Below the pieces are notes generated by a model, which was not told the origin of the DNA, searched no databases, and saw only the letters and a program-made list of their open reading frames with translations. A DNA stretch of 45,233 nucleotides, taken from assembly GCA_030650415.1 (NCBI GenBank), contig JAUSEG010000012.1, forward strand, positions 1 to 45,233, written 5' to 3'. This document shows positions 16,764-42,148 of this stretch, one piece after another. The translations under genes and the position numbers were made by a program. The stretch comes from a bacterium. GTDB taxonomy: Bacteria > Patescibacteriota > Patescibacteriia > Patescibacteriales > GWC2-42-12. The first letter of the stretch is position 1, and each line of letters begins with the position of its first letter.

Positions 16764-16891
16764 TGTCATTGCGGGCTTGACCCGCAATCCAGGGGTGAGC
16801 AATAAAGACATTAATACTACTAGCTTCTGGATTCCGGCTCGCCTTCGGCTTTAGGGCCGGAATGACAAAAAAACGGTCGCTCGCAATGACA
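16764..16891. repeat. Composite TGTCAT palindromic element
   Basis: Reverse complement aligns to 22907-23058, including the spacer. Confidence 0.88.
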
Positions 16892-16983
16892 ATAATAAAT
16901 AATCTACCACCTTTATATATAAAAAACAACCCACTTTAAAAATGAGTTGTTTTCATAATTCTTTATTCCTGATTCATTATTCA

Positions 16984-17160
16984 CTATTTGATTTCAATCG
17001 CCTGCACCGGGCAGCTTTCGGCCGCGTTTTTAGCGCAAGGTATATCTTCCTGGCTAAGCACGTCCACCTTATTATCGGCATTTAACTTAAAAACCTTGGG
17101 ACATAGAACTTCGCAGGTTCCGCAACCGATGCATAAATCATTGTTTACTTTAATAGACAT
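16984..17160 (-). CDS. Ferredoxin, 58 aa (absent from ORF track)
   Basis: MSIKVNNDLCIGCGTCEVLCPKVF...AAESCPVQAIEIK; CxxCxxC...CP motif. Confidence 0.92.
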   Translation of the reverse strand: MSIKVNNDLCIGCGTCEVLCPKVFKLNADNKVDVLSQEDIPCAKNAAESCPVQAIEIK

Positions 17161-17166
17161 AGAGTT

Positions 17167-17291
17167 AAAATTTCCAATTTTTAATTTTTAATTTCTAAAC
17201 AATTTCCAATTACTAAATTTTCAAACAGATTAATTGAAAATTTAAATATTAAGTCATTGTTTGAAAATTGTAAATTGAAAATTGAAAATTT
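17167..17291. repeat. Inverted pair of AATTTTC-type heptamer tracts
   Basis: Both arms follow 4 heptamers + AAAC + ~3 heptamers in opposite orientation. Confidence 0.7.
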
Positions 17292-17295
17292 GCTA

Positions 17296-20200
17296 TTATA
17301 TCCAGGTCACACAGGCGACTTTATCCGACTCTTCTTTAAATCTCATTAATCTGACGCCCTGCGTATCTCGCCCTAGAAGACTGACGCTCTTAAACGGCAA
17401 TCTGATAACCTGGCCTTTTTCCGAAATAATAATTATGTCTTTTTCGTCCATGCTTTCCGCGTTAACTATAAAGGCATTAATCAATTTTCCGGTCTTAGAG
17501 GTTACCTTGGCGGTCTTTATGCCCGACCCGCCTCGGCCTTGGGTTTTATATAGCCCGACACTTGAACGTTTGCCGAAACCATGCTCGGAAATTGCCAAGA
17601 GCTGATATTTTTTAATCTTCTCTTTATCATTTCTGATAATACCCATGCCGACCACCGCGTCTTCTTTCTTTTTTAATCTTATGCCCCTGACGCCGGCCGC
17701 GTTCCTGCCCATATCACGAACGTCGGTTTCTTTAAACCTGATAGCCTGACCCATGGCCGTAATTAACTGGATATGATCATCGCCGTTAGACGGTTTTGTC
17801 CAAATCAATCTATCATCGTCTTTAATTTTAATGGCGATTAAACCGGAGCGCCTGACATTCGAGAAAGCGCCGATCTCCACTTTTTTAACCAAGCCTTTTT
17901 CCGTGGCAAAAAATAGGTACTTGCTCTTAGCTAATTTATCCAGAGGCAAAACCGAGGTGATTTTTTCTCCGCCGGCCAATTGCAAAAAGTTAACGATCGG
18001 CGTGCCCTTAGCGGTTCTTTGCGCTTGGGGTATTTCATAAGCCTTAAGCTGAAAAACTCTACCCTTAGTGGTAAAAAATAATAAATCATTATGAGTCAGA
18101 GTGGTGAACATAAAGTCCACCATATCTTCTTCCTTGGTGGTTAAACCGATAACGCCCTTACCGCCTCGACCCTGAACTTTAAAAGTATCGGGCGTGGTAC
18201 GCTTGATATAGCCGTCGCGAGTCATCATCACTACGGCTTCTTCGTTCGGCACCAAGTCTTCAACGGAAAACTCCTTAACTCCATGAGCAACGATTTTAGT
18301 TCTTCGATCATCACCGAATTTTTCCGTTAAATCTTTAATTTCTTTCTTGATGATGTCTTTAACCTTTACGCTCGACTTTAGAATCGCTTCCAGGTCTTTA
18401 ATTAAAACTCGTTTTTCTTTAAGTTCATTTTCAATTTTCAATCTTTCAAGGTTGGCTAAAGTCGATAGTTTCATGTCCAGAATCGCCTGGGTTTGGCGCT
18501 CGGATAGTTTAAACTTCTTCATTAAATTCACTTTGGCCGCTTCTTTGTCTTTCGAAGCTTTAATTATTTTTATCACCGCGTCAATATTATTTAGAGCGAT
18601 CATTAAGCCTTCTAAAATATGGGCTCGTTCGCGCGCTTTATCTAAATCAAACTGGGTGCGGCGCTTAACCACTTCCGTGCGATGCTTAATATATTCTTCT
18701 AAAACCATTTTTAAGGTTAATACTTTGGGCTGAATGCCGTCGATTAGGGCCAGCATATTAACATGAAAAGTCTCCTGGAGCTGCGTCATCTTAAACAGGC
18801 TGTTTAAAATCTTTTTCGGATAGGCGTCCTTCTTTAAATCAACCACCACTCTAACGCCGTCTTTATCCGATTCGTCGCGCAAGTCTTTTATGCCTTCAAT
18901 TTTCTTTTCTTTTACCAAGTCGGCGATTTTTTCCACTAAAGTGGCCTTATTAACCGCGTAAGGTATCTCGGAAATCACAATTTGAAACGAGCCGTTCTTA
19001 TGTTCGAGCACCTCGGCCACGCCGCGTATGACTATCCCGCCCTTGCCGGTAGCGTAGGCTTGTAAAATATCTTTATGATTATAAATAACACCGCCGGTCG
19101 GAAAATCCGGCCCCTTAACGAACTGCATTAAATCTTCAACCGTAGCTTCGGGGTTAGCGATTAAATGAATTATCGCGTCGGTTAATTCTCTTAAATTATG
19201 AGGCGGAATGCTGGTTGCCATACCGACGGCTATGCCCATAGTGCCGTTTAGCAATAAGTTAGGCAGTTTGGCCGGCATGACCATCGGTTCCAGGTGCGAG
19301 CCGTCAAAATTCGGTATGAAATTAACCGTGTTTTTATCAATATCAAACATCAGTTCCTCGGCAATAGCGGAAAGTTTGGCTTCGGTGTAGCGCATGGCGG
19401 CGGCGCTGTCGCCGTCCATTGAATTATGAACAAAGACTCCCGCAGCTAAACAGAAGTTGTGAGTCTTATCTATAGTTAAATCATAAACATCTTCTTTTCC
19501 GGTCAACCTTATAATTTTGACAACCTTATGATTATTGCTAACCTCCTGCCTAACTAAATCCGGATTACTTTGAAAATATTTTTTTAAGGCTTTCTGCCAA
19601 ACCGGAGCGGCACCATAAGAATAAATTTTATTTCTGGTTTTCTCATAATTTTCTTCATTAAGCATCCATTGCTGTTTTATAATTTCTCGACAAATATTTA
19701 AAAATTTAATTTTACCGGTTTTATTAACAGTATGATTTTTATTGCCCTTGATAATTTTTTCATGCATTCGCAAACGGTACAAAGGATCTTGCCATAGTTT
19801 TTTTAAAGTTTTACTGGCTCGCTTGCTTAACTCGTCCCGTTTTTCCGGATGATCTAAAATATACTGCTTATTGGTTTCGCTTAAAGATCGCTTCATCTTA
19901 TCGCGATATTCGGGATTTTGCCAATTTTTAATATTTCTTTCTGACAAAGATTTCGCGTAACGCGCTTTATTGTCCGGATTAGACCAAAAAGTTTTTCTGC
20001 CTTGCGCGATTTTTTCGCGATATTCGGTGCTTTGATGAAGACTCGCCGCTTGCTCATAATGGATTTTCCAATGTTCACCCCACTGCATTCTGGCAATATT
20101 GTCCGGGTCGTTATTTAACTTGTTAAAATCAATATGATGTCTTACTCGCCCCGCGCTTTTCTTATATTTACCCGCGCTCAAGTTATAATTATCTGCCAAA

Positions 20201-21213
20201 TGATGCGCCGGCACCCACTCATTGGTTTTATTTTGATGTATTAAAATATAATCTTCCCTATTTAATCGATCGGTCTTAACGGAAAGTTTTTGATACAAGG
20301 GCATTAAAGAATCTCCGGATTTTAACTTCTCCGCTTCCAGATAGACGCCACTTCTTAACATGAACAAATGGTTAGGTGTACATTTTATTTCTTCTCCATT
20401 ATCCAATATAATCTTAGTGATTTCCGCCTGTTTTTTGGTCAATCTTGGTTTTTCAATCTTGGCGATAGAAATAAGCCCCAAGCTATTAACGGTATAAGTA
20501 TAATTTTGCTTGCCTCTTTTATATTCTTTTATAAGTTCGCCAAAGCTTAAACCTCTGCCATCGGTCAGTTTTACTTTAGTATCTTTAGTAAAACAGCCGA
20601 AGTTACCCTGCCCGCGCACTAACATGTAGCGCATGGAAAAATCTTGCGCCATTCTGACCATGGAATCATAAACCGCCGTATCGCCGTGCGGATGATACTT
20701 GCCTAAAACTTCTCCGACCACGGTGGCCGATTTCCTGAATCTGGCTCCGGCTCTAAGGCCGATGCTCCACATAGCGTAGAGAATTCTGCGGTGCACCGGC
20801 TTTAAACCGTCGCGCACGTCGGGCAAAGCGCGGGAAACGATCACGCTCATGGCGTAATCCAAATACGATTTTCGCATTTCATCGATCAAGGGTTGCGGTT
20901 CAACCATGCCATAAAGAGTTTTCTCTTTTTTAAAGACAGTCTGGTTAGGAATCGAGCCAATGCCGTTCTTCACTTCCCCATCAACGGCTTCTTCAATTGT
21001 TTCAACTTTCTTTTTAATCGGTACAACCGCTTTATTCTCCCCCTTTAACAAATGGGGCTGGGGGGATTTAATTTCGTTTTTCTCAATTTCCGCCGGCAAA
21101 ACTTCAATTGCCTTTTTTACAGCTTTAATCTTTTCCGGCTCTTTGCTCTCGGGTTTTTTTGGCTTTTTTGCTTTAATTTTCTTTAATATTTTTTTTACCA
21201 TTCTATTTGTCAT
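17296..21213 (-). CDS. gyrA: DNA gyrase subunit A with intein and Lys-rich N-terminal extension
   Basis: [30 protein letters not shown], GyrA-box QGRGGKG. Start could be 21201. Confidence 0.97.
19423..20595 (-). mobile_element. Intein, 391 aa, with HNH-type endonuclease
   Basis: GNFG|CFTKDT...IKCTPNHLF...VYDLT...FVHN|SMDGD; [14 protein letters not shown]...EH. Confidence 0.95.
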
Positions 21214-21271
21214 TCCCGCGGCTTGCCCCGTTAAATGCGAAGCATATTTAACTGGGGAGGCGGGAATCCAG
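21208..21271. repeat. TGTCATTCCCGC..GCGGGAATCCAG element with a nested CCCCGTTAAAT element
   Basis: Loop contains CCCCGTTAAATGCGAAGCATATTTAACTGGGG. Confidence 0.85.
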
Positions 21272-21310
21272 ATTATTATATTACTAAATTTATTTTTAAA
21301 TTATCATTTA

Positions 21311-21787
21311 TTATTTCCTCGTGCTACTCGCCGTTCCGGTCGCCACTTCATCCAGCAATTTACCTTTAAGCAAATTTATCTGTTCCGGACTTAATTTCGG
21401 TTCGCCGGATAAATTTTTCTGAATCGTGCCGGCTTGAATTTTTTTTATTTCCGCGACGCCTTGCTTTACCTGCGTCATAGCCTTATCCAATTCAACTTTA
21501 GTCTGACTCCAATTAAATCCACTCTCGGCGCCCTTATCTAAACTGATTTTAAACTCATGCTTTAAATTTATAATCCAAACCACAAAAAATATTACCATCA
21601 AGCAGCTTATTCCCACCCACATCAGCAGTTTTTTTTCTTGCTCGATTTTTTCCGAATCTGTTTCATTCTCCATAGCTGGATCATTTTTTAACTGCTCCGG
21701 TTTCTCTTCTTTTTCAATTTTTTCCGGTAATTTCTTATCGATTTTCTTCCTCGCTTTTGGCATAAAATAACCCTTAAAAATCACCAT
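21311..21787 (-). CDS. Hypothetical single-pass membrane protein
   Basis: TM segment LLMWVGISCLMVIFFVVWII. Confidence 0.65.
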   Translation of the reverse strand: MVIFKGYFMPKARKKIDKKLPEKIEKEEKPEQLKNDPAMENETDSEKIEQEKKLLMWVGISCLMVIFFVVWIINLKHEFKISLDKGAESGFNWSQTKVELDKAMTQVKQGVAEIKKIQAGTIQKNLSGEPKLSPEQINLLKGKLLDEVATGTASSTRK

Positions 21788-21892
21788 TTTATGGTGCCTA
21801 AAACTACCTAAATTATATCAATAAATAACAGATAAGTAAAGAACAAAAAACTCCGCCTAAACGGAGTTTCTATACCTTGAATTATACCTTAA

Positions 21893-22192
21893 TTAAACAA
21901 AAATTTTGGCGAATGGTTCCATGGCTAAAATTTCTTTGGTTTCAGCTTCAGAAATAACCTTGCGTCTTTTAAGAACCTCTATTAATTTACCGACCTTATT
22001 GTCTTCTTTGCGCGTTAAAACCACCAAATCGCCGCGCAGATCGGCCAATTTATCGTCTAAATAATCCTTAGTGACCATCGTGGCTTTAATACTTTTAATT
22101 TCACTTTCAACATTATCAAAACGACTGCCAATGCCATCAAATTCTTTTTTCATCATCCCGGCTAAGATATCAATCGTTATTTTTTTCTCCAT
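21893..22192 (-). CDS. Hypothetical coiled-coil protein
   Basis: 99-aa ORF with downstream terminator AAACTCCG-N6-CGGAGTTT (21849-21869). Confidence 0.7.
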   Translation of the reverse strand: MEKKITIDILAGMMKKEFDGIGSRFDNVESEIKSIKATMVTKDYLDDKLADLRGDLVVLTRKEDNKVGKLIEVLKRRKVISEAETKEILAMEPFAKIFV

Positions 22193-22250
22193 AAATTTGA
22201 ATGTTATGACTTCATTATAAATCGCTAAACTTGCCTTGTCAAGATTATGC

Positions 22251-22895
22251 TTACAACCCCAACACCACTAATTCCATATCCTCCTGCGGCAGGTCTTTTT
22301 TAGAGATTTTCAGTTTTTCTTCATTCCTCGGCTTAAGCCCCAGCTCTTTAATAAACTTTTCCACGCCGTCAATGTCAACCTTTAATCCCGGAATTTTATA
22401 GTGCATGGGGATAACGATTCTGGGCTCAATCTGCGAGATAACTTCCACGGCCTTAGACGCGTTAATTGTATATTTACCGCCCACCGGAATAATTAGAATA
22501 TCCGTGCCCTCTAATTTTTCCAATTGCTTGGTTTCTAAAATATGCCCTAGATCTCCTAGATGGGTGATAGAAATATCTTCCATCTCAATACGATAAATAA
22601 TATTTTTGCCGCGTTCTGCGCCGTCCTTCTCGTCGTGCCAGGCTTCCACGCCTTCAATAAACACGCCCTTAACGTCATATTCTCCGGCCATATTAATAAT
22701 CTGCGGATTGCCGCGAATTGCGCCGGTATTGCTATGATCATGATGATCGTGGCTAACGGTTACGATGTCGGCTTCATAATGCGGCACTTTTAAGCCGATA
22801 TCGGTGCCGAACGGATCGGTGATTAAAGTCACGCCGTCCGACCCGATTTTATCCTGCAATTTAAAACATGATTGTCCTAACCAGGTTATATACAT
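22251..22895 (-). CDS. MBL-fold metallo-hydrolase
   Basis: WLGQSCF, TDP, SHDHHDH, HLGDLG, IPMHY. Confidence 0.92.
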   Translation of the reverse strand: MYITWLGQSCFKLQDKIGSDGVTLITDPFGTDIGLKVPHYEADIVTVSHDHHDHSNTGAIRGNPQIINMAGEYDVKGVFIEGVEAWHDEKDGAERGKNIIYRIEMEDISITHLGDLGHILETKQLEKLEGTDILIIPVGGKYTINASKAVEVISQIEPRIVIPMHYKIPGLKVDIDGVEKFIKELGLKPRNEEKLKISKKDLPQEDMELVVLGL

Positions 22896-22906
22896 AGATT
22901 ATAATT

Positions 22907-23084
22907 TGTCATTGCGAGCGACCATCTAATTTGTCATTCCGGCCTTCGCCAGCTGGCGGAGAGCCTGCCTGCTGGCAGGCGAAGCCGGAATCCAGGAACG
23001 AGTAGAAGAAATGTCTTTACTGGCACCCCCTGGATGCCGGGTCAAGCCCGGCATGACAAGTTAAAAACGCTCCTCGCAATGACA
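22907..23084. repeat. Multi-level nested palindromic element
   Basis: Outer TGTCATTGCGAG..CTCGCAATGACA; inner 22932-23058; two mini-palindromes in the inner loop. Confidence 0.9.
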
Positions 23085-23094
23085 GAAAATTTGT

Positions 23095-23289
23095 TTATTT
23101 ATTTTTACTCAATAAAACTGCTTTCGCCGCTTGCATGATGCTAATATCATTCTTCACTAAATTCTGCGCGTATTTAAGATCTTGCTCGGCGATTCTTCTG
23201 TCCAAATCGCTTAAATAAGCTTTGGCTTTTTCATTAATCGCTTTAAATTCGGCCAATAAATCTTGAACCTGATTGTTTGTATTTGGCAT
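23095..23289 (-). CDS. Small hypothetical protein
   Basis: 64-aa helical ORF in operon orientation. Confidence 0.6.
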   Translation of the reverse strand: MPNTNNQVQDLLAEFKAINEKAKAYLSDLDRRIAEQDLKYAQNLVKNDISIMQAAKAVLLSKNK

Positions 23290-23310
23290 AAAATTATTGT
23301 CTTAAATTAT

Positions 23311-26340: not shown

Positions 26341-26354
26341 ATTTTTTAAATTAA

Positions 26355-29305: not shown

Positions 29306-29355
29306 TGTCATTGCGAGGAGCCCCGACGCTCTGGTCGGGGCGACGCGGCAATCTC
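29306..29355. repeat. TGTCATTGCGAG-type half element with a nested CCCCGAC hairpin
   Basis: TGTCATTGCGAGGAG-CCCCGAC-N6-GTCGGGG-CGACGCGGCAATCTC. Confidence 0.8.
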
Positions 29356-31120: not shown

Positions 31121-33991
31121 CTATTTATGCCTATACGCTCTAATAAATAACCCGACTAAAACAATTATCACACCCCCAGCGATTATCAGCAAATATTTAA
31201 ATAATTCGAGCTTCCTATCACGCTCCGCGACTGCCCACTCTTTCGCTTCAATCGTCTCGCCTAAAACTTGCGGCTCCAGATCGGTTGCGCCGGCGTCTTT
31301 TTTAACGATGTCCGACTGATAGCGCGGCAGCAGTCTTAAGCCGGTTGGCGTCTTGCTTAAAATACCGGTTATCGCTACCGCCTGGCCGGGTTTTAAATCT
31401 TTCGTATCCAGACCGGCGCCTTTTTTAAAATAAACCAAAATTTCATCGTTGCCGTCGTCTAAGTAAGCCGTATAGGCTTTTTTAGAAGTTATTTCGCCGG
31501 TAATGGTAATCAACTGGCCGATATTTTCTTCGCTAACCGCGTCAGAGCTTAAAACCAATGGCGTAGGCGCCGGCTTATGCTCTATTATATTAATGTCGTT
31601 TTTATCCTTGGTTTTTATTCTAAGCTCCTCCTGCGTTAGCGCCAGCTCGCCGCTCACCTCTATATAATCGCCAACTTTCAGAATAGGAAAATCTTTTTTA
31701 TAATTATAAATTTGTATGCCCGATGAAGAGGTGGCAATATAGAATATTTGGACGCCTAAGATCCCCGGCTCCACCGCTACCGTGCCATTAACTTTTACCA
31801 AGCTGCCAATCTCCAGATCTTTAACTTTTTCCAAGTTCATGGCAATATAACTATCCGCATTTCCCATTATTCCTAATTCATTATTCATAATTCCAGTCTG
31901 ACTGCCGGTCAAACTGATAACATTTTCCCGCGCCGGCGTTAGTTTAGTCGTCCAGAACCATCTGCCGTTGGCTCCGCGCGCGTAAGTCTCGCCCTGAAGC
32001 GCTCCGTTATATTCCACCCGGTCAATCAATTCGTCCAAATTATTATATAAGCTGATGGTATCGCTCTCATTTTTAAACGCCAGCCGGCTTTCCGCGTTGG
32101 TTAGCAGGTAAAAATTTTCCGTGTCCAGCCATAAATCATTTTTAAATTTAAACTTGCCGTTGCTGTTTTCCAATCGCCAATTTAGCAAATTAATTTTACT
32201 AAGCCCCTGATTTTTAAGTTCTGCCCATTCTTTGCCAGTATCCGCGCCGGCCGGATTGGGTAAAATTTCATTAATTACAATATTGTCATTGCGAGCGACC
32301 GCCTCTGTATTGTCATTCCCGCGTAGGCGGGAATCCAGAACTTCAACTACCTCGCCAACACTGCCAACAATTTTCACACTCTTTTCTTTAGTGCTAGTGG
32401 CCTGGCCGTCGCTTACCGCCAAGCTTACCTTATATATTCCGCTCTTAAAAAAGGTATGCTCCGGACTATCTAAATTATTTTTAAAGCCATCGCCAAAATC
32501 CCAAGCATATTTTAATTTATCACTATCTATATCATCAGTATCAGAGGAATCAAACCTAACCGGCTGACCGACTAAAGCTTCGCCAGGCGAGCTGAATTCA
32601 ACCTCTGGCGCGTGATTAACCGCTTTAATAACATTAGCCGCGCCCGGCGTCGGTGTCTCGCTCCAGATCCAATTACCCCCTTGATAAAGGGGGCTAGGGG
32701 GATTATTCATATCCAAATTATAGCTCCAACCTTCCTTTACATCCTTATATGAAACGATTTGCGTCGGCTTATCAGCTAGGGGTTCATACAATTTAATTTC
32801 GCCCTGATCATTATGCAGAACCAGCTTTGATTTGGGCCGAAAAAAAGCCAGAAATTCTCCGGCCTTGATGATCGTGCTGGTGGCAATTTTTTCTAAACTG
32901 ATTTTTTTATTATCTTCATTGCTTAGGCTCCAGCCGATTAAATTTATATCGCGCGCGCCGGCGTTATAAATTTCTATAAATTCCAATTTAGTGTCGTCGC
33001 CGGCCGGATTAGGCAGTATTTCGGAAATAAAAACATCATCGCTAAAATCAAACCCCGCTCTGGCCTCCGCGCTTGCTTCGTCTTCAATCTGAATAATATT
33101 ACTGGCGCCCTTAGTTGAGTTAACAGTAATGGAAAAATCGTTGGCATTATTAAAAGTATTATAGCCGTCAAATTTTCTGGCCACGCTAGCCGGGTCGCTG
33201 GCCGCCGGCGCGTTATCGGTCAAATTACCGTCATCCCAGTTGCCGTAAGCTACCTGGTCAATTATTTTTCCGCTGGCATCGTATAAAACAACTAAATCCC
33301 CGTCATTATTTAAAACGCCGGCCGGTTTTTCAATTACTTTGTATTTACCCGAACCGCTAGCGGCCAGACTGCCGCTTAAATTGGTCTTAGCTTTACTGCC
33401 GTCTTCAAGCCGCCAGCCGGTTAAATCTATTTCTCCGCTCGTTTTATTATATAGCTCAATCCACTCTACTTCGCCGTCTGCCGGATCGGAAACCAACTCG
33501 TTAATTACCACGTCACCCAGCGCGTCGGCCGCTCCGCGCGTCGGCGGCGGGGGAAGGATTATTTCTTCTTCGGTCGAAGTGGCTGTGTCGGCTTCTATCT
33601 GGCAGGCGGCGCTGCAGCCGTCGCCATTTGCCAAATTGCCGTCATCGCATTCTTCCTCGGAATCCAGCTGTCCGTCGCCGCAAACCGGCGCGATGATTTC
33701 ATTAACCACGGTTATTAAATCTTTAAGGCTGTCAAAAGTCGCCTGCTTAATCCCAACGACATTCATTATATCTTCAATTTTCTCAAACAATTTTATATTG
33801 CGATAATCAATAATCGCCTGCGCTTTAGCCTCCCCGATGCCGGGCAGAGTATCCAACTCGACCAGAGTGGCCGTGTTAATATTTATTTTACCCGAAGCTT
33901 CAATTTTTTGGCCACAAAAAAATCCCGCGCCAACTATGGCCAGGATTACAATAATTTGTACCAAATAAAAATCCCCTCCTTGTCGCCGCAT
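31121..33991 (-). CDS. Surface protein: ComEA-like HhH, Cys-rich repeat, three lamin-tail domains, PKD, OB folds, C-terminal TM
   Basis: ININTA..EL.TLPGIG..KA..II.YR; CGDG..EECDDGN..GDGCS; three INE/ISE..EWIE-type units; Y.WDFGDG. Confidence 0.88.
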   Translation of the reverse strand: MRRQGGDFYLVQIIVILAIVGAGFFCGQKIEASGKININTATLVELDTLPGIGEAKAQAIIDYRNIKLFEKIEDIMNVVGIKQATFDSLKDLITVVNEIIAPVCGDGQLDSEEECDDGNLANGDGCSAACQIEADTATSTEEEIILPPPPTRGAADALGDVVINELVSDPADGEVEWIELYNKTSGEIDLTGWRLEDGSKAKTNLSGSLAASGSGKYKVIEKPAGVLNNDGDLVVLYDASGKIIDQVAYGNWDDGNLTDNAPAASDPASVARKFDGYNTFNNANDFSITVNSTKGASNIIQIEDEASAEARAGFDFSDDVFISEILPNPAGDDTKLEFIEIYNAGARDINLIGWSLSNEDNKKISLEKIATSTIIKAGEFLAFFRPKSKLVLHNDQGEIKLYEPLADKPTQIVSYKDVKEGWSYNLDMNNPPSPLYQGGNWIWSETPTPGAANVIKAVNHAPEVEFSSPGEALVGQPVRFDSSDTDDIDSDKLKYAWDFGDGFKNNLDSPEHTFFKSGIYKVSLAVSDGQATSTKEKSVKIVGSVGEVVEVLDSRLRGNDNTEAVARNDNIVINEILPNPAGADTGKEWAELKNQGLSKINLLNWRLENSNGKFKFKNDLWLDTENFYLLTNAESRLAFKNESDTISLYNNLDELIDRVEYNGALQGETYARGANGRWFWTTKLTPARENVISLTGSQTGIMNNELGIMGNADSYIAMNLEKVKDLEIGSLVKVNGTVAVEPGILGVQIFYIATSSSGIQIYNYKKDFPILKVGDYIEVSGELALTQEELRIKTKDKNDINIIEHKPAPTPLVLSSDAVSEENIGQLITITGEITSKKAYTAYLDDGNDEILVYFKKGAGLDTKDLKPGQAVAITGILSKTPTGLRLLPRYQSDIVKKDAGATDLEPQVLGETIEAKEWAVAERDRKLELFKYLLIIAGGVIIVLVGLFIRAYRHK
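32284..32338. repeat. Composite TGTCAT element fragment in frame in the surface protein
   Basis: TGTCATTGCGAGCGACC-N10-TGTCATTCCCGCGTAGGCGGGAATCCAG, encoding LDSRLRGNDNTEAVARND. Confidence 0.88.
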
Positions 33992-34071
33992 AGTATTTTA
34001 ATTATATTTTATACCTCAATTTTAGCACAAAAAATCAAAATATAAAAACTCATTATTCCTAATTCATTATT

Positions 34072-34758: not shown

Positions 34759-34768
34759 AATTTGTCAT

Positions 34769-34894: not shown

Positions 34895-35011
34895 CCAGAT
34901 TTTTACACTAATAATAATTATTTGTTGCTTTTATTTTACCATTTAAAAATACTTTTGTAAAAAATTTAAAATGTCTGGCATGTCATAATTTACTGTTATA
35001 TTACCTAACTA

Positions 35012-35040
35012 TTGACTTTTTTTACTAAGTATGTTATTAT
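35012..35040 (+). promoter_or_regulatory. Sigma70-like promoter
   Basis: TTGACT-17 nt-TATTAT with an extended TG. Confidence 0.6.
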
Positions 35041-35087
35041 GTTTACCAAGCAGTAAAACCAAAAAATAAACAAAAGAGACTCAAAAA

Positions 35088-35432
35088 ATGAGAACAAGTC
35101 GAGCCAGAAGACATGATTACCTCCGCGGAGAACCGCAGGTAAACCTGGAGCCATTGCTCCGAAGACTTTTCACAAACTCCCCAGCACGAAGGCCAGAAAA
35201 CGACCATCCAACGCGTCACGTGCAAGGGGGCGAACCCCTACCCATGCTCCCACTGGAGGGAAAAAAATCCTCATTCTTCCCGCTAGGGCTGAAGCCCTGG
35301 TGGAAGAACGAGCCGGAAGCGATGCGCACCGTCCTCGTGGCCATAGTCATCTTTGCGGCAGCCGGCCTTGTCGCCCTCCCCTTTTTGGACTATCTGGTGG
35401 ACCAGATACATTCCCTAATAATGGGAAAATAA
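35088..35432 (+). CDS. Hypothetical protein with C-terminal TM helix
   Basis: Lies between the promoter at 35012 and the terminator at 35439. Confidence 0.55.
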   Translation: MRTSRARRHDYLRGEPQVNLEPLLRRLFTNSPARRPENDHPTRHVQGGEPLPMLPLEGKKSSFFPLGLKPWWKNEPEAMRTVLVAIVIFAAAGLVALPFLDYLVDQIHSLIMGK

Positions 35433-35438
35433 TCTCAC

Positions 35439-35481
35439 GGCGCTGGAAGACAACGAATGTCTTCCGGCGCCTCTTTTTTTT
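35439..35481 (+). terminator. Intrinsic terminator
   Basis: GGCGCTGGAAGACA-acgaa-TGTCTTCCGGCGCC followed by a T tract. Confidence 0.8.
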
Positions 35482-35552
35482 AAATAAAAAAACGGCTTTG
35501 TCTTATGACAGGCGCCGTTGAGCCTTGTTTATTTTATTCAAATCATCTTGCG

Positions 35553-36314
35553 TCACTTAGCCGCCTGCTGGCGAGCCAGGAACGCCTTGCCCTTGCCCAC
35601 CTCCGTATTAATCGGAACACCGGCCGCGCAGAGCGGACAACCGATTTCGTCGAAGGCGTCGAGCTTGACGTTGACGAGCGAAACAAATTTTGGCGGATTG
35701 CCAACCTGCTCGGCCGTAATCCCGCCGCGATTGCAGAGAGCCGCGAGACCCACGACGTTGCCGCCGAGAGCGCGAACCGCTTCAACGACCATTTTCGCCG
35801 ACTGGCCGGTAGTAAGAACATCCTCCACCACCAGAATTTTTCTCCCAGCCACGAGCTTGTCGTAGCCGCGTTTGATAACGAAACTCGGCTTCTTGATAAG
35901 CAACTCCCAGCCTGCTTCGATGAAAACCAAACGGCCGGTGTCGCCGACCATTATGCCTTCGTGCCTATCAAGTTTGAGCAAGGACTTTTCCTCGTGTTCG
36001 GCGTAAACGCCCAAAACTTCCAGGTGATCAACTCCGGCGCGCGCCCGAATATCCGTCAAGTTATATGCCACCCATTGCGAGAGAATTACCCCGCCGATCG
36101 CTGGCGCGACCACCACCTCGGGTTCTTCTTCGAAAAACAATTGAGCGATCATTCCACAGAGCCGCGACGTCGCGAGCGTATGCGGATAGATTGCATCCTT
36201 GTTGACATAAGCCGAGCCATGTTTGCCTGAAGCGTAAACGACATGGCTGTTGGTAATAACCGCGCTGACCTCATTGAGAATTTCCAGCGCTTGCTGTTCT
36301 AATGTGAAGATCAT
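35553..36314 (-). CDS. pyrE: Orotate phosphoribosyltransferase with loop insertion
   Basis: H.V.ASGKH...Y, PAIGG, PRPP motif LVVEDVLTTGQS, CPLC; downstream of pyrF. Confidence 0.88.
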   Translation of the reverse strand: MIFTLEQQALEILNEVSAVITNSHVVYASGKHGSAYVNKDAIYPHTLATSRLCGMIAQLFFEEEPEVVVAPAIGGVILSQWVAYNLTDIRARAGVDHLEVLGVYAEHEEKSLLKLDRHEGIMVGDTGRLVFIEAGWELLIKKPSFVIKRGYDKLVAGRKILVVEDVLTTGQSAKMVVEAVRALGGNVVGLAALCNRGGITAEQVGNPPKFVSLVNVKLDAFDEIGCPLCAAGVPINTEVGKGKAFLARQQAAK

Positions 36315-36349
36315 AGACTTTCGTTGCCTTTCCTTTCGGTTTGTTCTGT

Positions 36350-37246
36350 TTAGTTCAACGCAGTTTTGATTGCTTCGTGGAGTTTAATCGTCTCGCGACG
36401 CGCCGCTTCGGCGAAGTCTTCGCCCGCTGAGGCGAAAATAATACCGCGCGAGGAGTTGATGATCATGCCCCGCCCTCGGTTGTCCCTACCGGCTTTGACT
36501 GTCTTCTCCAGATCTCCGCCTTGCGCGCCGATGCCGGGAATAAGAATCGGCATATTGCCGACGATTTCTCGCACTTCGGCCAGCTCATCAGGATAAGTCG
36601 CCCCGACCACGACGGCGCAATTGCCGTTATTATTCCATTTGCACGCAACATTATACGCGACACGTTGATATAACGGGATGGTGCTTGAAGTAAAATCCCG
36701 GCTTGCGTCTCCTCCTTGTACGGGTGGTCTGACCAGTATAGGCACAGGCAGATCCTGAAACTCGCCCGCGCCCTTGTTCGAGGTCCGGCAGAGCACGATG
36801 ATGCCCTTGTTCGCTCGCTTGAGAAATGGCTCGAGCGCTTCTTGCCCAAGATACGGGTGAACGGTAATCGCGTCGGCTTTGAAATAATCGAAGGCCGCCA
36901 CCGCATAGCCGTTGTTGGTGTTACCGATGTCGGCGCGTTTCGCGTCGAGAATCACCGGCACGTCCGGCGCCGCTTCGCGAATGTAAAAAATGGTTTTGAG
37001 GAGCGCGTTAAGACCGCTGGTACCGCAGGATTCATAAAAAGCCATGTTCGACTTGTAAGCGCAGACGACGTCCTTGGTGGCGTTCACGATAGCGCGATTA
37101 AAGGCTGCGATAGCGTCGCTGGAGCTAATCGCCTTCTCTCGTACGAACAGGGGGATTTTGTCGAGCTCGCTGTCGAGTCCTACGCAGACTAAATTGCCTC
37201 GAGTCCATTGAGCTTCGAGCAGTTGGTTGAAGTTTCTTTCACTCAT
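36350..37246 (-). CDS. pyrF: Orotidine-5'-phosphate decarboxylase
   Basis: CVGLD, LDAKRADIGNT, TVHPYLG, RTSN, VVGAT, PGIGAQGG, INSSR. Confidence 0.95.
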   Translation of the reverse strand: MSERNFNQLLEAQWTRGNLVCVGLDSELDKIPLFVREKAISSSDAIAAFNRAIVNATKDVVCAYKSNMAFYESCGTSGLNALLKTIFYIREAAPDVPVILDAKRADIGNTNNGYAVAAFDYFKADAITVHPYLGQEALEPFLKRANKGIIVLCRTSNKGAGEFQDLPVPILVRPPVQGGDASRDFTSSTIPLYQRVAYNVACKWNNNGNCAVVVGATYPDELAEVREIVGNMPILIPGIGAQGGDLEKTVKAGRDNRGRGMIINSSRGIIFASAGEDFAEAARRETIKLHEAIKTALN

Positions 37247-37413
37247 AGCTGTCTTTCTGTGTTTTTGTTTGTTTCAGTTTTCAAAGGGCGATAAGCCAAG
37301 CATCCGCCTGGCCCCTCCTTTTGATATGCCTAAATTACCCTAAATCTAAGAAAAAAGCAAATACAAAAACAGCCCACATTAAATAGGCTGTTCTAAACTT
37401 AACTGACTAATCG

Positions 37414-37498
37414 TGGTGCAGGCGGAGAGACTCGAACTCTCATGGATTGCTCCACTAGCTCCTAAGGCTAGCGCGTATACCAATTCCGCCACGCCTGC
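37414..37498 (-). tRNA. tRNA-Leu(TAG), CCA encoded
   Basis: GCAGGCG acceptor stem, anticodon arm CTAGC-CTTAGGA-GCTAG, long variable arm, GTTCGAGT T-loop. Confidence 0.97.
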
Positions 37499-37597
37499 GC
37501 GTTGTCTCATTTTTCATTATTCGCGATTTTTTGTCAATTATCATCTTTATTCCCATTATATCAAAGATTATGTTATTATTATAATATAATTAAATAA

Positions 37598-37712
37598 ACC
37601 CCATGAAATAATTTTACTTTGAAGTAAAATTCCCGTTTACGGGATTTCACGGGGTTCACCCCATGAAATAATTTTACTTTGAAGTAAAATTCCCGTTTAC
37701 GGGATTTCACGG
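37598..37712. repeat. Tandem duplication (60-bp period) of a branched CCCCATGAAAT..ATTTCACGGGG element
   Basis: Two identical 55-bp copies at 37598-37652 and 37658-37712. Confidence 0.9.
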
Positions 37713-37727
37713 AATAAACATAAAAAT

Positions 37728-38045
37728 ATGGATAACAAAAAAACAATTAAGCCGGGAACTGATCGGGATATAGAGGATAATAAAGTTATGGCCGCCTTTT
37801 CCTATATCTGGATCTTATTTTTAATTCCCTTGCTCCTAAAAAAAGATTCAAAATTCTGTCAGTTTCATGCCAAGCAGGGATTAATTCTTTTTCTCTTGAG
37901 TTTTATTACCTGGTTTCCGGTTCTTGGCTGGCTAATCGGTCTGGCGATTATTGTCGTCTCGGTCGTAAGCATCGTTAAAACTTTGGCCGGAGAGCAATGG
38001 GAAATACCGTTTATCTACGATTTAAGCAAAAAAATTAATTTATAA
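37728..38045 (+). CDS. DUF4870-like small membrane protein
   Basis: NK..AA.SY...L.LIPL..KKDS.F..FHAKQG. Confidence 0.8.
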   Translation: MDNKKTIKPGTDRDIEDNKVMAAFSYIWILFLIPLLLKKDSKFCQFHAKQGLILFLLSFITWFPVLGWLIGLAIIVVSVVSIVKTLAGEQWEIPFIYDLSKKINL

Positions 38046-38052
38046 TTAACCT

Positions 38053-38209
38053 TGTCATTGCGAGAAACTCCCCCTCTTGTCATTCTGGAGGGAGGAGCGT
38101 TAGCGACGACCGATAGAATCCCATGGAAAGCACTCTAACATATGAGATGCTATCGCTCCACTTCGTTTCGCTCCAGCATGACAAAATAAAATGTTCGCTC
38201 GCAATGACA
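38053..38209. repeat. Nested TGTCAT element (outer GCGAG type, inner CTGGAG type)
   Basis: Outer 38053-38209, inner 38078-38183. Confidence 0.9.
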
Positions 38210-38224
38210 ATAAAAAAATAATCT

Positions 38225-40627
38225 ATGCCAGAAAACAAATTCATTAAATTTTTCGAAGAAACCACTATTAAGGATGTGCCGTTAGTCGGAGGAAAAAACG
38301 CCTCTCTCGGCGAAATGTATAAAAACCTGGCCGGCCAGGGCATAAAAGTGCCGAACGGCTTCGCCACCACTTCGGCCGCCTATAACTACCTTCTGGAACA
38401 AACCGATTTAAAAGCCGGCATTAAAAAAATCTTGGACGGTTTAAACACGCGGAACGTTACCGATCTGGGCAAGCGCGGCGCGGCCGTTAGAAAATTAATT
38501 ATCGCTACCGAATTCCCCGATGATCTGAAGCAAGCCATTTTAGAAAGCTACAAAAAATTATCCGAATTTTATAAAACTAAAAATCTGCATGTCGCGGTTA
38601 GATCGAGCGCCACGGCCGAAGATCTACCCGACGCATCGTTTGCTGGCCAGCAGGAAACCTTTTTAAATGTTTCGGGCGAAGCCGAACTGCTCTTAATGGT
38701 AAAAAAATGCCTCGCTTCCTTATTTACTAACCGCGCCATCTCCTACCGCGTAGACAAAGGCTTTGATCATTTTCAAATCGCTTTGTCCGTGGGCGTGCAG
38801 AAAATGATCCGTTCCGATTTAGCCGCCTCGGGCGTAACCTTTACCATTGACACCGAGTCGGGCTTTAGCAACGTAGTCCTCGTCAGTTCTATTTACGGCT
38901 TGGGCGAAAATATCGTCCAGGGTAAAGTTGATCCGGACGAATTCTATGTTTTTAAACCCACTAAAACCATCATTTCTCGCTCTTTAAGCAAAAAAAATAT
39001 TAAAATGATTTACAGTTCTAATCCCAAGCGTCCGGTTAAGGATGTAAAAGTGCCATTAAGCGATCAACGCAAGCAATCTATCACCGACGCGCAAGTTCTG
39101 AAACTGGCCGATTGGGCCATGCAGATTGAAAAGCATTATGGCCGAGCCATGGATATAGAATGGGCTTTGGACGGCCGAGATAACGAACTATATATTATCC
39201 AGGCCAGACCGGAAACTATCCATAGCGTTCGTGATTACAGCGTGATTGAAGAATATGTTTTAGAAAAAAAATCTTTACCCCATAAAGGAACTTCACGGGG
39301 CAAAATTATTTCTACCGGCCGAAGCGTGGGCAATCGCATCGGCGCCGGAACCGCCAATCGAATTATGGACATATCCAGTATCGCGAAATTCAAACCAGGC
39401 GAAGTTCTGGTTACCGATATGACCGATCCGGACTGGGAGCCGATTATGAAAATCGCCTCGGCTATCGTGACCGACAAGGGCGGACGCACCTGCCACGCGG
39501 CCATCGTTTCCAGGGAGCTGGGCATTCCTTGCGTCGTCGGTACGGGTGATGTTTCTAGAAAAGTTAAAACCGGCCAAGCCGTAACCGTTAGTTGCGCCGA
39601 GGGCGACATGGGCTTCGTTTACGAGGGCAAGCTGCCGTTTAAAATCAATCAGACCAGCATTAAAAATCTGGCCAAACCGAAGACTAAGATCATGATGAAT
39701 ATCGGTTCGCCGGATATTGCCTTCTTATCGTCCTTTATTCCTAATGATGGCGTGGGGCTGGCGCGCGAAGAATTTATTATTAATGATCAGATAAAAATTC
39801 ATCCTCTGGCGCTCATAAATTATCCGAAGTCAAAGGACAAAAAAGCCAAAAAGAAAATTGACGAGTTAACCGCCGGCTATAAGGACAAAAAACAGTATTA
39901 TATTGATAAGCTGGCGCAAGGCATGGCCATAATTTCCGCCGCCTTTTATCCTAAGGATGTAATTATCAGATTTTCCGATTTTAAAACCAACGAATACGCG
40001 AACCTAATCGGCGGCGCCGAGTATGAGCCGGTTGAATCCAACCCGATGATCGGCTGGCGCGGCGCTTCGCGCTATTACACGCCGGAATTTAAGCCGGCCT
40101 TTGAACTGGAGTGCTTGGCTATAAAAAAAGTCCGGAATGAGATGAAGCTGACCAATCTAAAAGCCATGGTGCCGTTCTGCCGTACCATTAAAGAAGCCGA
40201 GCAGGTGATAAAAATTATTGCCGACAACGGCTTAAAGCAAGGTGAAAACGGCTTTGAATTATATTGCATGGTGGAAATACCGTCCAACGTCATTCTGGCC
40301 GAAGAATTCGCTAAACTCTACGATGGCTTTTCCATCGGCTCTAACGACCTAACCCAACTAACGCTCGGCGTTGACCGCGACAGCTCGCTGGTCAGCAAAG
40401 TCTATGATGAAAACAATTTGGCGATAAAGAAATTAATTAAGCTCGCCATTAAAGTCGCCAAACAAACCGGCACGAAGATCGGCATCTGCGGCCAAGCCCC
40501 GTCCGATTTCCCCGAATTCGCCCAATTCCTGGTGGAATGCGGCATAGACAGCATTTCCCTAAACCCGGACACGGTTATAAAAACCACTCTAGCCATACTG
40601 GAAACGGAAAAGAAGCTGGGCAAATAA
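38225..40627 (+). CDS. ppsA: Phosphoenolpyruvate synthase
   Basis: VGGKNASLGEM, AVRSSATAEDLPDASFAGQQET, GGRTCHAAIVSRELG, SIGSNDLTQL. Confidence 0.97.
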   Translation: MPENKFIKFFEETTIKDVPLVGGKNASLGEMYKNLAGQGIKVPNGFATTSAAYNYLLEQTDLKAGIKKILDGLNTRNVTDLGKRGAAVRKLIIATEFPDDLKQAILESYKKLSEFYKTKNLHVAVRSSATAEDLPDASFAGQQETFLNVSGEAELLLMVKKCLASLFTNRAISYRVDKGFDHFQIALSVGVQKMIRSDLAASGVTFTIDTESGFSNVVLVSSIYGLGENIVQGKVDPDEFYVFKPTKTIISRSLSKKNIKMIYSSNPKRPVKDVKVPLSDQRKQSITDAQVLKLADWAMQIEKHYGRAMDIEWALDGRDNELYIIQARPETIHSVRDYSVIEEYVLEKKSLPHKGTSRGKIISTGRSVGNRIGAGTANRIMDISSIAKFKPGEVLVTDMTDPDWEPIMKIASAIVTDKGGRTCHAAIVSRELGIPCVVGTGDVSRKVKTGQAVTVSCAEGDMGFVYEGKLPFKINQTSIKNLAKPKTKIMMNIGSPDIAFLSSFIPNDGVGLAREEFIINDQIKIHPLALINYPKSKDKKAKKKIDELTAGYKDKKQYYIDKLAQGMAIISAAFYPKDVIIRFSDFKTNEYANLIGGAEYEPVESNPMIGWRGASRYYTPEFKPAFELECLAIKKVRNEMKLTNLKAMVPFCRTIKEAEQVIKIIADNGLKQGENGFELYCMVEIPSNVILAEEFAKLYDGFSIGSNDLTQLTLGVDRDSSLVSKVYDENNLAIKKLIKLAIKVAKQTGTKIGICGQAPSDFPEFAQFLVECGIDSISLNPDTVIKTTLAILETEKKLGK

Positions 40628-40634
40628 AGAAAAT

Positions 40635-41492
40635 ATGTTTCTGTTTAATTTTCTCCATACCTTTAACCCCTCTCCAATCTTAATTTCTCTCGGACCAATT
40701 CATGTCTATTGGTATGGTTTTTTTATTGTCTTAGGAGTATTAGCCGCCTTGACCGTGACCATACGCTTGGCCAAATTTTATCAAATCAAAACTGACACCA
40801 TCATTGACTTGGCTCTCTGGCTGGTTGTCGGCGGCATCATGGGCGCTAGAATTTACGACATTTTCTTGGAATGGCCGTACTTCTCCGCCCACCCTCTGGA
40901 TATCTTAAAAATCTGGCAAGGCGGTTTAGCGATTCATGGCGCGATTATCGGGGGATTGATCGCGCTCTGGCTGTTCGTCAAAAAATACTCCGCCCAGGTA
41001 AATTTCTGGCAGCTGGCGGCCATCTTCGCTACCGTCTTGCCCTTGGCCCAGGCCATTGGCCGCTGGGGAAATTATTTTAATCAGGAACTCTTCGGCTATC
41101 CGACTAATCTGCCCTGGGGCATACCCATAGATATGACTCACCGACCTTGGCAGTATCTTAATTCCGAATATTTCCACCCGGCGTTTTTATATGAGTCACT
41201 TGGCAATTTACTAATATTTTTAATTTTACTATCACTGCAAATTTGGCTTATAAAGAAATCAAGGAGTCTTGGGTTGCGAGCTATGAGCTACGAGCTATGC
41301 GTTGTGAGTTACGCGATTTTTTATTCTTTGCTCCGCTTTTCCATGGAATTTATTAGAATTGACCCTACCCCGGTTATCTTGGGCTGGCGCCTGCCACAGC
41401 TAGCCAGTTTCATAATTATCATCGCCTGCCTAATTTATTTAGGGCTAAAATTCGGCCGCCAGAACAAGAATAACCCAGCTCTTGAAAAATAA
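40635..41492 (+). CDS. lgt: Prolipoprotein diacylglyceryl transferase
   Basis: WYG, GAR.Y, GGLAIHG, IGRWGNYFNQE, HP.FLYE, RF..EF.R. Confidence 0.95.
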   Translation: MFLFNFLHTFNPSPILISLGPIHVYWYGFFIVLGVLAALTVTIRLAKFYQIKTDTIIDLALWLVVGGIMGARIYDIFLEWPYFSAHPLDILKIWQGGLAIHGAIIGGLIALWLFVKKYSAQVNFWQLAAIFATVLPLAQAIGRWGNYFNQELFGYPTNLPWGIPIDMTHRPWQYLNSEYFHPAFLYESLGNLLIFLILLSLQIWLIKKSRSLGLRAMSYELCVVSYAIFYSLLRFSMEFIRIDPTPVILGWRLPQLASFIIIIACLIYLGLKFGRQNKNNPALEK

Positions 41493-41600
41493 ACAACGCC
41501 GTGCTAATATAATTGAGACTTAGACAAATCACATCATATTAAAAATTATTTATCCCGTTTCAACGGGACAAAATTTAAAAATTAAAAATTTTATTTATCT

Positions 41601-41870
41601 ATGCCTAATTCAAAGTCAGCGGAAAAAAATCTGTGTAAATCAATCAAACATCGCCAAGCCAATGCCAAAATTGAAAATAATCTAAAAGATTTAATCAAAA
41701 AGGGCCGTAAATTAATTGAAGCTAAGGACGGTCAAGCTAAAGATTTGGTGGCTAAAATTTTAGTGGCGATCGATAAAGCGGCGCAAAAAGGCGTCATCAA
41801 AAAAAATACGCGCGACCGCAAGAAATCAAGACTGCAAAAAAAATTCAACCAAGCTTTTAAAAAAGCTTAA
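41601..41870 (+). CDS. rpsT: 30S ribosomal protein S20
   Basis: MPN.KSA.K, IDKAAQKGVIKKN..RKKSRL. Confidence 0.93.
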   Translation: MPNSKSAEKNLCKSIKHRQANAKIENNLKDLIKKGRKLIEAKDGQAKDLVAKILVAIDKAAQKGVIKKNTRDRKKSRLQKKFNQAFKKA

Positions 41871-41951
41871 TAACAAAAAACTGTAATCATATTTAGTATA
41901 ATATTAAATATATTACAATTTCTTGTAAGCCGCTCTTTAAATAAACGTTTA

Positions 41952-41981
41952 ATACAAAAACCCCTAAACAGGGGTTTTTGT
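41952..41981. terminator. Bidirectional terminator
   Basis: ACAAAAACCCCT-aaac-AGGGGTTTTTGT. Confidence 0.75.
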
Positions 41982-41992
41982 GTATTGTCTAC

Positions 41993-42148
41993 TGTCATTG
42001 CGAGAAATATAATTTACATTTGTCATTCCCGCGCAGGCGGGAATCCAGAAACGGGGTTTTTACTGTTCACTCCTGGATTCCCGCCTGCGCGGGAATGACA
42101 GAGGAGAAAATTTGCTTCCCCCGGCTCAAGGCCGGAGTCGCAATGACA
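41993..42148. repeat. Nested TGTCAT element (outer GCGAG type, inner CCCGC type)
   Basis: Inner perfect 28-bp inverted pair at 42021-42048 and 42073-42100. Confidence 0.92.

Follow-up and report, generated by a model that had tools for sequence, protein, structure and literature searches.

What sets the distance at which one palindromic repeat comes to lie inside another? The question is raised by a contig of 45,233 nucleotides (nt; JAUSEG010000012.1, our C26, taken whole as the window of this analysis) from G000, a genome of 1.287 Mb in 45 contigs, with 40.8% GC and 98.7% completeness, whose gene content, such as an LTD/PKD/ComEA-like protein and a GyrA with an intein, resembles that of the Candidate Phyla Radiation (CPR)/Patescibacteria. 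A preliminary description of the window had noted five loci between positions 16764 and 42148 at which the terminus of an outer hairpin element is followed, after 24–28 nt, by a second TGTCAT opening an inner element, and had proposed an enzyme acting in trans that reads the outer terminus and inserts or replaces at a fixed distance from it. We find that a leader and one or two units of a foreign family have supplanted whatever lay 3' of the conserved arm in a resident element, and that this replacement of the interior hits both strands in two-unit elements and recurs at reproducible positions. We assign a probability of about 0.6 to the reading that resident elements of the GCGAG family have had their interiors replaced in place by modules of other families of Ssn-related motifs (SRMs), the near-constant offset being the sum of the retained arm and the leader.

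G000 holds about 460 hairpin units of at least six families. A unit comprises a G-poor, T-rich leader of about 10 nt, the sequence TGTCATT, one or more stems with a loop, and a closing AATC(C/T), the 3' end reading AATC(T/C)C in the normal GCGAG unit of G000; families other than CCCGC retain the GTCATT...AATC frame around different stems. Usually, two units face each other, 20–60 nt apart, to constitute an element, and a 12-nt inverted terminus is present on elements. The GCGAG elements are asymmetric: the L-type unit continues with CGACCGNAGGGAGCG, and the R-type unit with GAGC, a variable stem 2 and GCGACG. In these terms, the loci of the window are composed as follows.

16764–16793, plus strand: complete GCGGG-type hairpin unit (TGTCATT-stem-loop-stem-AATCCAGG), which closes after 25 nt and is not an outer shell
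16827–16867, minus strand: CCGGC-type inner hairpin unit
16868–16873, minus strand: leader between the retained arm and the inner unit, T6 on the minus strand
16874–16891, minus strand: retained 5' arm of a GCGAG L-type unit, 18 nt counting the T
22907–22923, plus strand: retained 5' arm of the left GCGAG unit (L-type, CGACC)
22924–22931, plus strand: leader, 8 nt, no G
22932–22996, plus strand: inner left unit, CCGGC type, a long two-stem hairpin
23030–23058, minus strand: inner right unit, ATGCCGGG type
23059–23068, minus strand: leader, 10 nt
23069–23084, minus strand: retained 5' arm of the right GCGAG unit (R-type, GAGCG)
29306–29355, plus strand: single complete GCGAG hairpin unit, un-nested, displaying the untruncated form
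32284–32301, plus strand: retained 5' arm of a GCGAG L-type unit, inside the open reading frame (ORF) 31121–33991 of the minus strand
32302–32310, plus strand: leader, 9 nt
32311–32338, plus strand: CCCGC (NTS-like) unit
38053–38068, plus strand: retained 5' arm of the left GCGAG unit, a rare GCGAGAAAC variant; the G004 orthologue, GCGAGAAGC, has the same variant
38069–38077, plus strand: leader, 9 nt
38078–38120, plus strand: inner left unit, CTGGAG type, with the arm subtype of the ssn cassette at C1:4590–4877
38146–38183, minus strand: inner right unit, ATGCTGGAG type
38184–38192, minus strand: leader, 9 nt
38193–38209, minus strand: retained 5' arm of the right GCGAG unit
41993–42008, plus strand: retained 5' arm of the left GCGAG unit
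42009–42020, plus strand: leader, 12 nt
42021–42048, plus strand: inner left CCCGC unit, agreeing with 27 of the 28 positions of the published NTS consensus
42073–42100, minus strand: inner right CCCGC unit
42101–42109, minus strand: leader, 9 nt
42110–42148, minus strand: full, degenerate outer hairpin (GCGAC variant)

On rereading these loci, all the coordinates and offsets reported earlier proved correct: the offsets are 24 nt (16886–91 to 16862–67, minus strand), 25 nt (22907 to 22932), 27 nt (32284 to 32311), 25 nt (38053 to 38078) and 28 nt (41993 to 42021), and those on the right are 26 nt (23079 to 23053), 26 nt (38204 to 38178) and 48 nt (42143 to 42095). The last is long because the outer hairpin there is full, if degenerate, and is followed by a leader rather than being truncated. 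The three inner families described, CCGGC, CCCGC and CTGGAG, are likewise present. Nesting at all five loci stands in general, except that TGTCATTGCGGG at 16764 is a complete GCGGG unit, leaving that locus nested on its right side only; similarly, the locus at 32284 is not two-ended, as it has no right end and consists of one truncated and one inner unit within the ORF.

The pattern extends well beyond these loci. With at most one mismatch allowed, the window has 10 copies of the outer terminus TGTCATTGCGAG where 0.1 would be expected, and none of 100 shuffles attains 10; TGTCAT occurs 34 times against an expected 10.8. Across G000, the 5-mers following GTCATT are dominated by GCGAG (162), CCCGC (115), CCCGA (40), CTGGA (39), CCGGC (38), GCGGG (22) and GCGGC (14), which far exceed any other. 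From each of the 162 GTCATTGCGAG termini in G000, the distance to the next GTCAT on the same strand is sharply bimodal: 81 have none within 124 nt, while it lies at 17–22 nt in 3, at 24–28 nt in 35, at 33–64 nt in 34 and at 68–114 nt in 9. The 24–28-nt class compares with 3.4 expected per 5-nt bin (binomial P ~1e-26, the copies being partly non-independent), and the offsets are thus not broadly distributed. In the 33–64-nt class, the outer hairpin is mostly whole and is followed by a pyrimidine-rich spacer of 6–10 nt before the next unit. Searching 24 related genomes for TGTCATTGCGAG-N(4-60)-TGTCAT recovered 55 matches, of which 21 are short (20 at 23–29 nt and one at 17 nt) and none lies at 30–38 nt; the reversed pattern, used as a control, gave no match in any genome. 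The same search yields 61 matches in G000 and 5 in G004, the closest relative compared, where none is of the short class; short-class composites number 38 in G000 against 0 in G004. Hence, of the constant offset earlier ascribed to all families, the GCGAG peak holds genome-wide and in other genera, but outer halves of the CCCG family have offsets of 20–21 nt and the 33–64-nt class is about as large as the short one.

What, then, is the offset made of? In the composites, the outer part consists of GTCATTGCGAG plus CGAC(YG), GAGC(G) or AA-C, amounting to 15–17 nt, and the remainder up to the next TGTCAT is a leader of 8–12 nt. Over 36 junctions at 22–30 nt, the offset has a mean of 25.9 and a standard deviation (sd) of 1.4, approximately as expected from two narrow, independent parts. 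The leader belongs to units in general: upstream of 394 outermost units, G makes up 5–11% at positions −13 to −1 against 15–21% at −30 to −20, with T at 44–54% at −9 to −3, and 67 inner units show the same pattern, with C+T at 69–100% at −8 to −1. Outer halves of other families retain different lengths, 10–13 nt with an offset of 20–21 nt in CCCG (7 cases) and 10–12 nt with an offset of 24–26 nt in GCGG (4 cases). The family-dependence of the offset, as in CCCG, indicates that the distance is no universal ruler; and because 24–28 nt resolves into an arm and the leader that all units carry, it is probably not a distance that an enzyme measures from the outer terminus, contrary to the proposal of the preliminary description.

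In models folded with DNA parameters, the break in CCCGC, GCGGG and L-type GCGAG units falls where the apical loop begins on its 5' side. The notion that the break always falls in the apical loop was rejected, as long-stem R-type GCGAG units do not fit it; a purely structural rule would, in these folding models, cover most cases but not all. Taking the final G upstream of the inner unit to mark the break proved unreliable because leaders hold an occasional G, the correlation it gave (r = −0.94) being an artefact of the marker's definition. Two loci on another contig show arm and leader repeated together: at C18:28039–28102, a 21-nt half-unit plus leader (GTCATCCCC + TCTTTCTCTTTT) stands four times in tandem ahead of a complete unit, and at C18:9560 a 21-nt leader plus arm is duplicated exactly once.

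The evidence for replacement comes from the same sites in relatives, G001–G004 from the same genus and G009, G011 and G022 from other genera of the family. At 8 of the 13 loci tried, and 8 of the 11 alignable ones, the corresponding site of a relative is occupied, between the same flanks, by a plain GCGAG element or unit.

22907–23084: plain L/R GCGAG element between the same flanks in G004; site empty in G011; CCCGC unit behind a decayed outer arm and a leader in G009 (offset 26); in G022 the outer arms enclose GCGGC and other units (offsets 26 and 25)
16764–16891: plain two-hairpin GCGAG element in G004 and G009; none in G001
38053–38209: plain in G004 and G009; the rare GCGAGAA-C variant is common to the left unit of G004 and the arm retained in G000
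32284: a single complete GCGAG unit stands at the same codon position of the gene in G009
C43:30514: plain in G004; G000 retains 36 nt, including an identical variable stem 2
C43:32798: plain in G004; inner CTGG in G000 and inner CCCG in G003, both breaking after CGAC
C43:42358: plain in G004, G009 and G003
C43:43879: plain in G004, G003 and G009
C43:40974: composite common to G000 and G004, with 10 of 11 leader positions identical
41993 and C43:29409: alignable, uninformative
C43:34099 and C43:46852: no alignable orthologue

The plain state at 8 of the 11 alignable loci indicates that the interior was replaced in place, as had been suggested from the window by itself, and the plain elements at orthologous sites argue for independent nestings as opposed to descent from one compound ancestor. 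The replacement events are independent, recurrent and concentrated in the G000 lineage. Further, different lineages gained different inner families at the same locus independently: at 22907, G000, G009 and G022 hold three different inner families with left offsets of 25, 26 and 26 nt. At 32284, G000 has kept the first 17 nt of the unit (from the G of GTCATT), followed by the 9-nt leader and the CCCGC unit, and differs from G009 by 18 nt in length, the ORF reading through. The leader shared with G004 at C43:40974 indicates, by its 10 of 11 identical positions, that leaders are not hypermutable.

As to the nature of these repeats, the Neisseria NTS has been given as CGTCATTCCCGCGMAVGCGGGAATCYRG (Chenal et al., 2025, Nat Commun 16:2388; PMC11893778). 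According to the text of that paper, NTS cutting depends on three bases upstream of the palindrome and binding on the C after it; SsnA of N. meningitidis cuts about 3 nt upstream of the NTS and never inside hairpins; the characterised Ssn enzyme acts on single-stranded DNA only, neither RNA nor double-stranded DNA being a substrate; ssn genes typically lie between SRMs; SRM mobility figures as a mere hypothesis; and Devosia is named as SRM-rich (PMC11893778). In G000, 59 copies, two of them in the window, match GTCATTCCCGCGMAVGCGGGAATCYRG, which is the published NTS minus its first base, thereby agreeing at 27 of 28 positions; position 1 is T in all 59 against C in Neisseria, giving no full 28-nt match. 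The core ATTCCC-N8-GGGAAT has 168 strand-wise matches, or about 84 sites. By these resemblances, the window repeats are Ssn-related motifs, DNA hairpins of the SRM/NTS type, and the comparison with REP, Rickettsia or dRS3 palindromes made at first is superseded by this assignment.

Candidate enzymes of the corresponding kind are also encoded. Besides UvrC, G000 has 13 small GIY-YIG ORFs (Pfam GIY-YIG, E 3.4e-17 to 2.0e-12), four of which are Ssn-like, being single-domain proteins of 95–99 amino acids (aa) with a mutual identity of 52–60%. While no candidate enzyme is adjacent in the window, as stated previously, these four genes lie elsewhere in the genome and are framed by the same families of units.

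C1:4590–4877: Ssn-like gene between inverted CTGGA-type units
C35:48238–48528: Ssn-like gene between inverted GCGGC-type units
C18:26899–27192: Ssn-like gene between inverted CCCGC-type units, within further half-units and a GCGAG-like shell
C18:7749–8036: Ssn-like gene between inverted GCGAG-type units

Gene-less CTGG pairs share both arm types of the CTGGA cassette. The ORF framed by GCGAG units (C18:7640–8060) has 122 open codons, but ahead of its GIY motif neither ATG nor GTG nor TTG occurs in frame, and the only nearby ATG is out of frame. Relatives of the Ssn-like proteins were confirmed in 569 stretches from many phyla, Devosia among them, and a hairpin unit stands on both sides in 41 of the 70 Ssn-like loci with full flanks (strict test). 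Searches of NCBIfam and PDB sequences with the Ssn-like proteins returned no usable name or structure.

The families are not equivalent in these composites. Truncated outer halves in G000 number 42 of 173 for GCGAG, 0 of 42 for CCGG, 1 of 41 for CTGG and 0 of 27 for gCTGG; and of 102 inner facing pairs, 59 are free while 34 have a GCGAG unit directly next to them on one side or both, several of the apparently one-sided composites having a decayed second arm. The nesting is therefore directional, with GCGAG as the overwritten resident. As a conjecture, the missing in-frame canonical start of its nuclease gene may be the reason why GCGAG is overwritten.

A further family behaves comparably. Of 31 copies of the palindrome TCAT(C/G)GCTACGC..AGATCT..GCGTAGC(C/G)ATGA, about 21 lie inside SRM units of four families, and these embedded copies always stand directly 5' of the closing (G/C)AATC (e.g., C6:29851, C11:5292, C21:35201 and C43:42553). 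This is a second and more precise case of a repeat inserted at a fixed place in another.

Mechanistically, the breaks in the resident would be made in folded single-stranded DNA, the incoming module would begin within or close to the Ssn cut zone that lies upstream of it, and ligation, or a template switch in the course of repair, would then join the ends. That every unit has a G-poor leader zone upstream is compatible with Ssn cutting there, though it is not proof of it. Several points weigh against this reading. The cut of SsnA about 3 nt upstream of the NTS, as the text of PMC11893778 gives it, is shorter than the 8–12-nt leader, and since the enzyme is described there as sparing the hairpin interior, the break at unit position 15–17 is left without a known enzyme. 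In long-stem R-type units, the break position (15–16) is predicted to be paired, in the first base pairs of stem 2, rather than looped. The CCGGC composites at C26:22908, C8:37280 and C21:79190 share their arm and part of the leader, implying that composites can also be copied as wholes. No recent donor of the inner parts was found, the nearest paralogues being 84–94% identical with unrelated leaders, so that the leader may either travel with the module or arise at joining. Finally, G000 is a metagenome-assembled genome in 45 contigs, orthologues were sought for 13 of about 34 GCGAG-flanked composites in 5–7 kin genomes, and the analysis is one of sequences only.

Two rival accounts survive to a similar, low degree. 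In one, a trans-acting nuclease binds TGTCATTGCGAG and cuts or inserts about 25 nt away in the style of GIY-YIG homing endonucleases. We consider this improbable, even though a tight offset (mean 25.9, sd 1.4, n=36) is what such a ruler should produce, for that sd is also the one of two narrow independent parts summed. A fixed reach would likewise account for the 15–17-nt arm retained in both L- and R-types despite their differing predicted loop starts, and for the independent events in G000 and G003 that break after the same CGAC, but not for CCCG outer halves at 20–21 nt, for GCGG arms of just 10–12 nt, or for the break after 36 nt at C43:30514. The relatives from other genera keep to 23–29 nt with none at 30–38, yet in 34 of the 162 G000 termini the next unit stands at 33–64 nt behind a mostly intact outer hairpin. 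Moreover, the Ssn proteins have a single domain, and the characterised enzyme cuts, by the text of PMC11893778, upstream of the hairpin and outside the element.

In the other, a few ancestral composites convert plain GCGAG elements through their 12–16-nt shared termini, or transpose by their outer ends, so that the offset is inherited. The three CCGGC composites that share an arm and part of a leader fit this picture, as do the one arm subtype seen in 7 of the 9 nested CTGG copies, compared with 1 of the 8 free ones sampled, and the 94% likeness of C43:13249 and C12:1222, both nested. It is nevertheless an unlikely general explanation. Resident-specific sequence past the shared 11–12 nt is kept, namely the AA-C at 38053 and the 36 nt with stem 2 at C43:30514, from which it follows that these junctions arose within the resident; most leaders within one inner family are unrelated, though the leader shared with G004 changed at just 1 of 11 positions; the short class is absent from G004 against 38 in G000; and the geometry is common to at least four inner families. 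Transposition by the outer ends is further disfavoured by the flanks, as none of the 63 elements tested for a target-site duplication has a direct repeat of at least 4 nt; matches of 2 and 3 nt are rare (10/63 and 2/63), with free pairs no higher than a shifted control. A miniature inverted-repeat element of a classical DDE transposon was rejected on the same count, the terminal inverted repeats being present and the target-site duplication absent.

Least probable by far is a structure kept at its spacing by selection, as a signal for transcript processing or termination or as a protein-binding array: nested hairpins are mostly intergenic and their stems covary, but the same loci are plain, otherwise filled or empty in close relatives, units also lie in frame inside uvrC and the LTD/PKD protein gene, the characterised Ssn enzyme is, according to the text of PMC11893778, inactive on RNA and double-stranded DNA, and Rfam 15 at its gathering score matches nothing in the window except a tRNA (37417–37498), with no match for the repeat elements.

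Returning to in-place replacement of SRM interiors, we may set the system beside those already known. The repeats and nuclease genes appear to belong to the Ssn/SRM kind described in 2025: they share with it the GTC, the palindrome beginning ATT and the C after it, the close agreement of the CCCGC family with the NTS, single-domain GIY-YIG genes (~94 aa) framed by inverted units, and copies in the hundreds, across many phyla (text of PMC11893778). G000 differs in that it combines several SRM families with four paralogous nuclease genes, and in that units are nested in and truncated by each other with a regular geometry, comparative data establishing replacement in place. In the literature consulted, we found nothing on a nesting geometry of SRMs, on the make-up of arm plus universal leader, on recurrent in-place replacement or on a family hierarchy; the word 'nested' is absent from the text of the Ssn paper (PMC11893778).

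The REPIN and REP-BIME systems with RAYT (Y1 HUH) enzymes are similar in their inverted hairpin pairs, high copy number, single unit-framed gene and mosaic clusters. The conserved 5' motif of REPIN/REP sequences is GTAG. G000 has GTCATT in its place, and the associated gene is GIY-YIG; a REPIN/RAYT system was rejected, as Y1_Tnp (PF01797) has no match in G000, the control search having matched in 6 of 14 genomes. Insertion into palindromic repeats of the IS110/IS1111 type was rejected similarly, with no match to DEDD_Tnp_IS110 (PF01548) in G000. In Neisseria, the intergenic mosaic elements consist of repeat units around variable segments. G000 shares the dRS3-like ATTCCC-N8-GGGAAT and the bracketing of variable segments by repeat units, but it is of another phylum, its outer shells are of the GCGAG family, and it has neither an IS110-type nor a filamentous-phage integrase. 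Homing endonucleases of the I-TevI type, which are also of the GIY-YIG fold, cut at a set distance from their binding site and thereby offer the idea of a fixed cut distance; in contrast, the proteins of G000 are single-domain at 95–99 aa, with no DNA-binding domain and no intron or intein context, and score far below the cut-off of the NCBIfam profiles for group-I-intron endonucleases.

The Rickettsia palindromic elements are hairpin repeats inserted in frame in protein genes. The G000 repeats appear to belong to another sequence family, and the likeness observed is one of behaviour: it is seen in the LTD/PKD protein gene (32284–32338) and in uvrC (15633–15718). The former insert is translated in frame on the minus strand (...LDSRLRGNDNTEAVARNDN...) within a 956-aa LTD/PKD/ComEA-like protein. 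At the same spot, G004, G001 and G002 have another G/C hairpin repeat, and the differing repeats among relatives mark this protein loop as a landing site for repeats. In uvrC, a facing pair of CTGG-type units lies within the coding region at 15633–15718, where the Pfam UvrC RNase H match spans 185 residues for a profile of 159 positions, consistent with an in-frame repeat insert. The same ORF (15334–16755, minus strand) also holds in frame a 30-nt palindrome at 16093–16122 (...EVRIKKL SGFARSGVARE VKIKKL...), a variant of the 32-nt family with 31 copies in G000. It is flanked by an 18-nt direct repeat (16075–16092 and 16126–16143; 17 of 18 identical), which looks like either a long target duplication or a duplicated coding repeat.

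Other features of the window may be noted here. A long CCCG-type unit (21208–21270) abuts the listed start of the intein-bearing gyrA ORF; read in reverse complement, the TGTCAT terminus of this unit supplies the ORF with its first ATG. At 4513–6678 lies a gene for a 721-aa protein in which an AEP-TOTE primase domain (E 1.5e-86) is joined to a ResIII/helicase module, the arrangement of a TOTE conflict (defence) system. Among public sequencing runs, one from groundwater contains the window and is probably its source, and four others contain small parts of it. In Logan contigs of four groundwater runs, contigs end at repeats, and the joints found are other genomic repeat copies. Over 41656–42300 of the window, the summed contig depth on the CCCGC (NTS-like) units is 900–5200 in these four runs, as against about 45–60 (run X1) or less outside the units; the exact unit must hence be very abundant across organisms in the groundwater samples.

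For those concerned with CPR genomes, these results bring a warning on annotation, as much 'hypothetical protein' and in-frame insert sequence in this group is repeat DNA. More generally, the text of PMC11893778 left open whether SRMs move and how they spread, and G000 and its relatives supply comparative evidence on this point. The occurrence of plain and composite states at the same sites, with reproducible junctions, makes SRM mobility, and the role of the nucleases in non-competent or ultra-small bacteria, testable, with defined substrates in the form of the GCGAG unit, the modules of leader plus unit and the four paralogous enzymes. We tentatively entertain the wider possibility that SRMs are actively mobile in the CPR by structure-guided single-strand integration into set places of other SRMs, be it the end of the arm or, for the 32-nt palindrome, the position 5' of (G/C)AATC, with families that have a working Ssn overwriting and disabling the recognition sites of their rivals. 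If this were true, Ssn nucleases would drive a turnover in which element replaces element, a mode of mobility undescribed for GIY-YIG enzymes.

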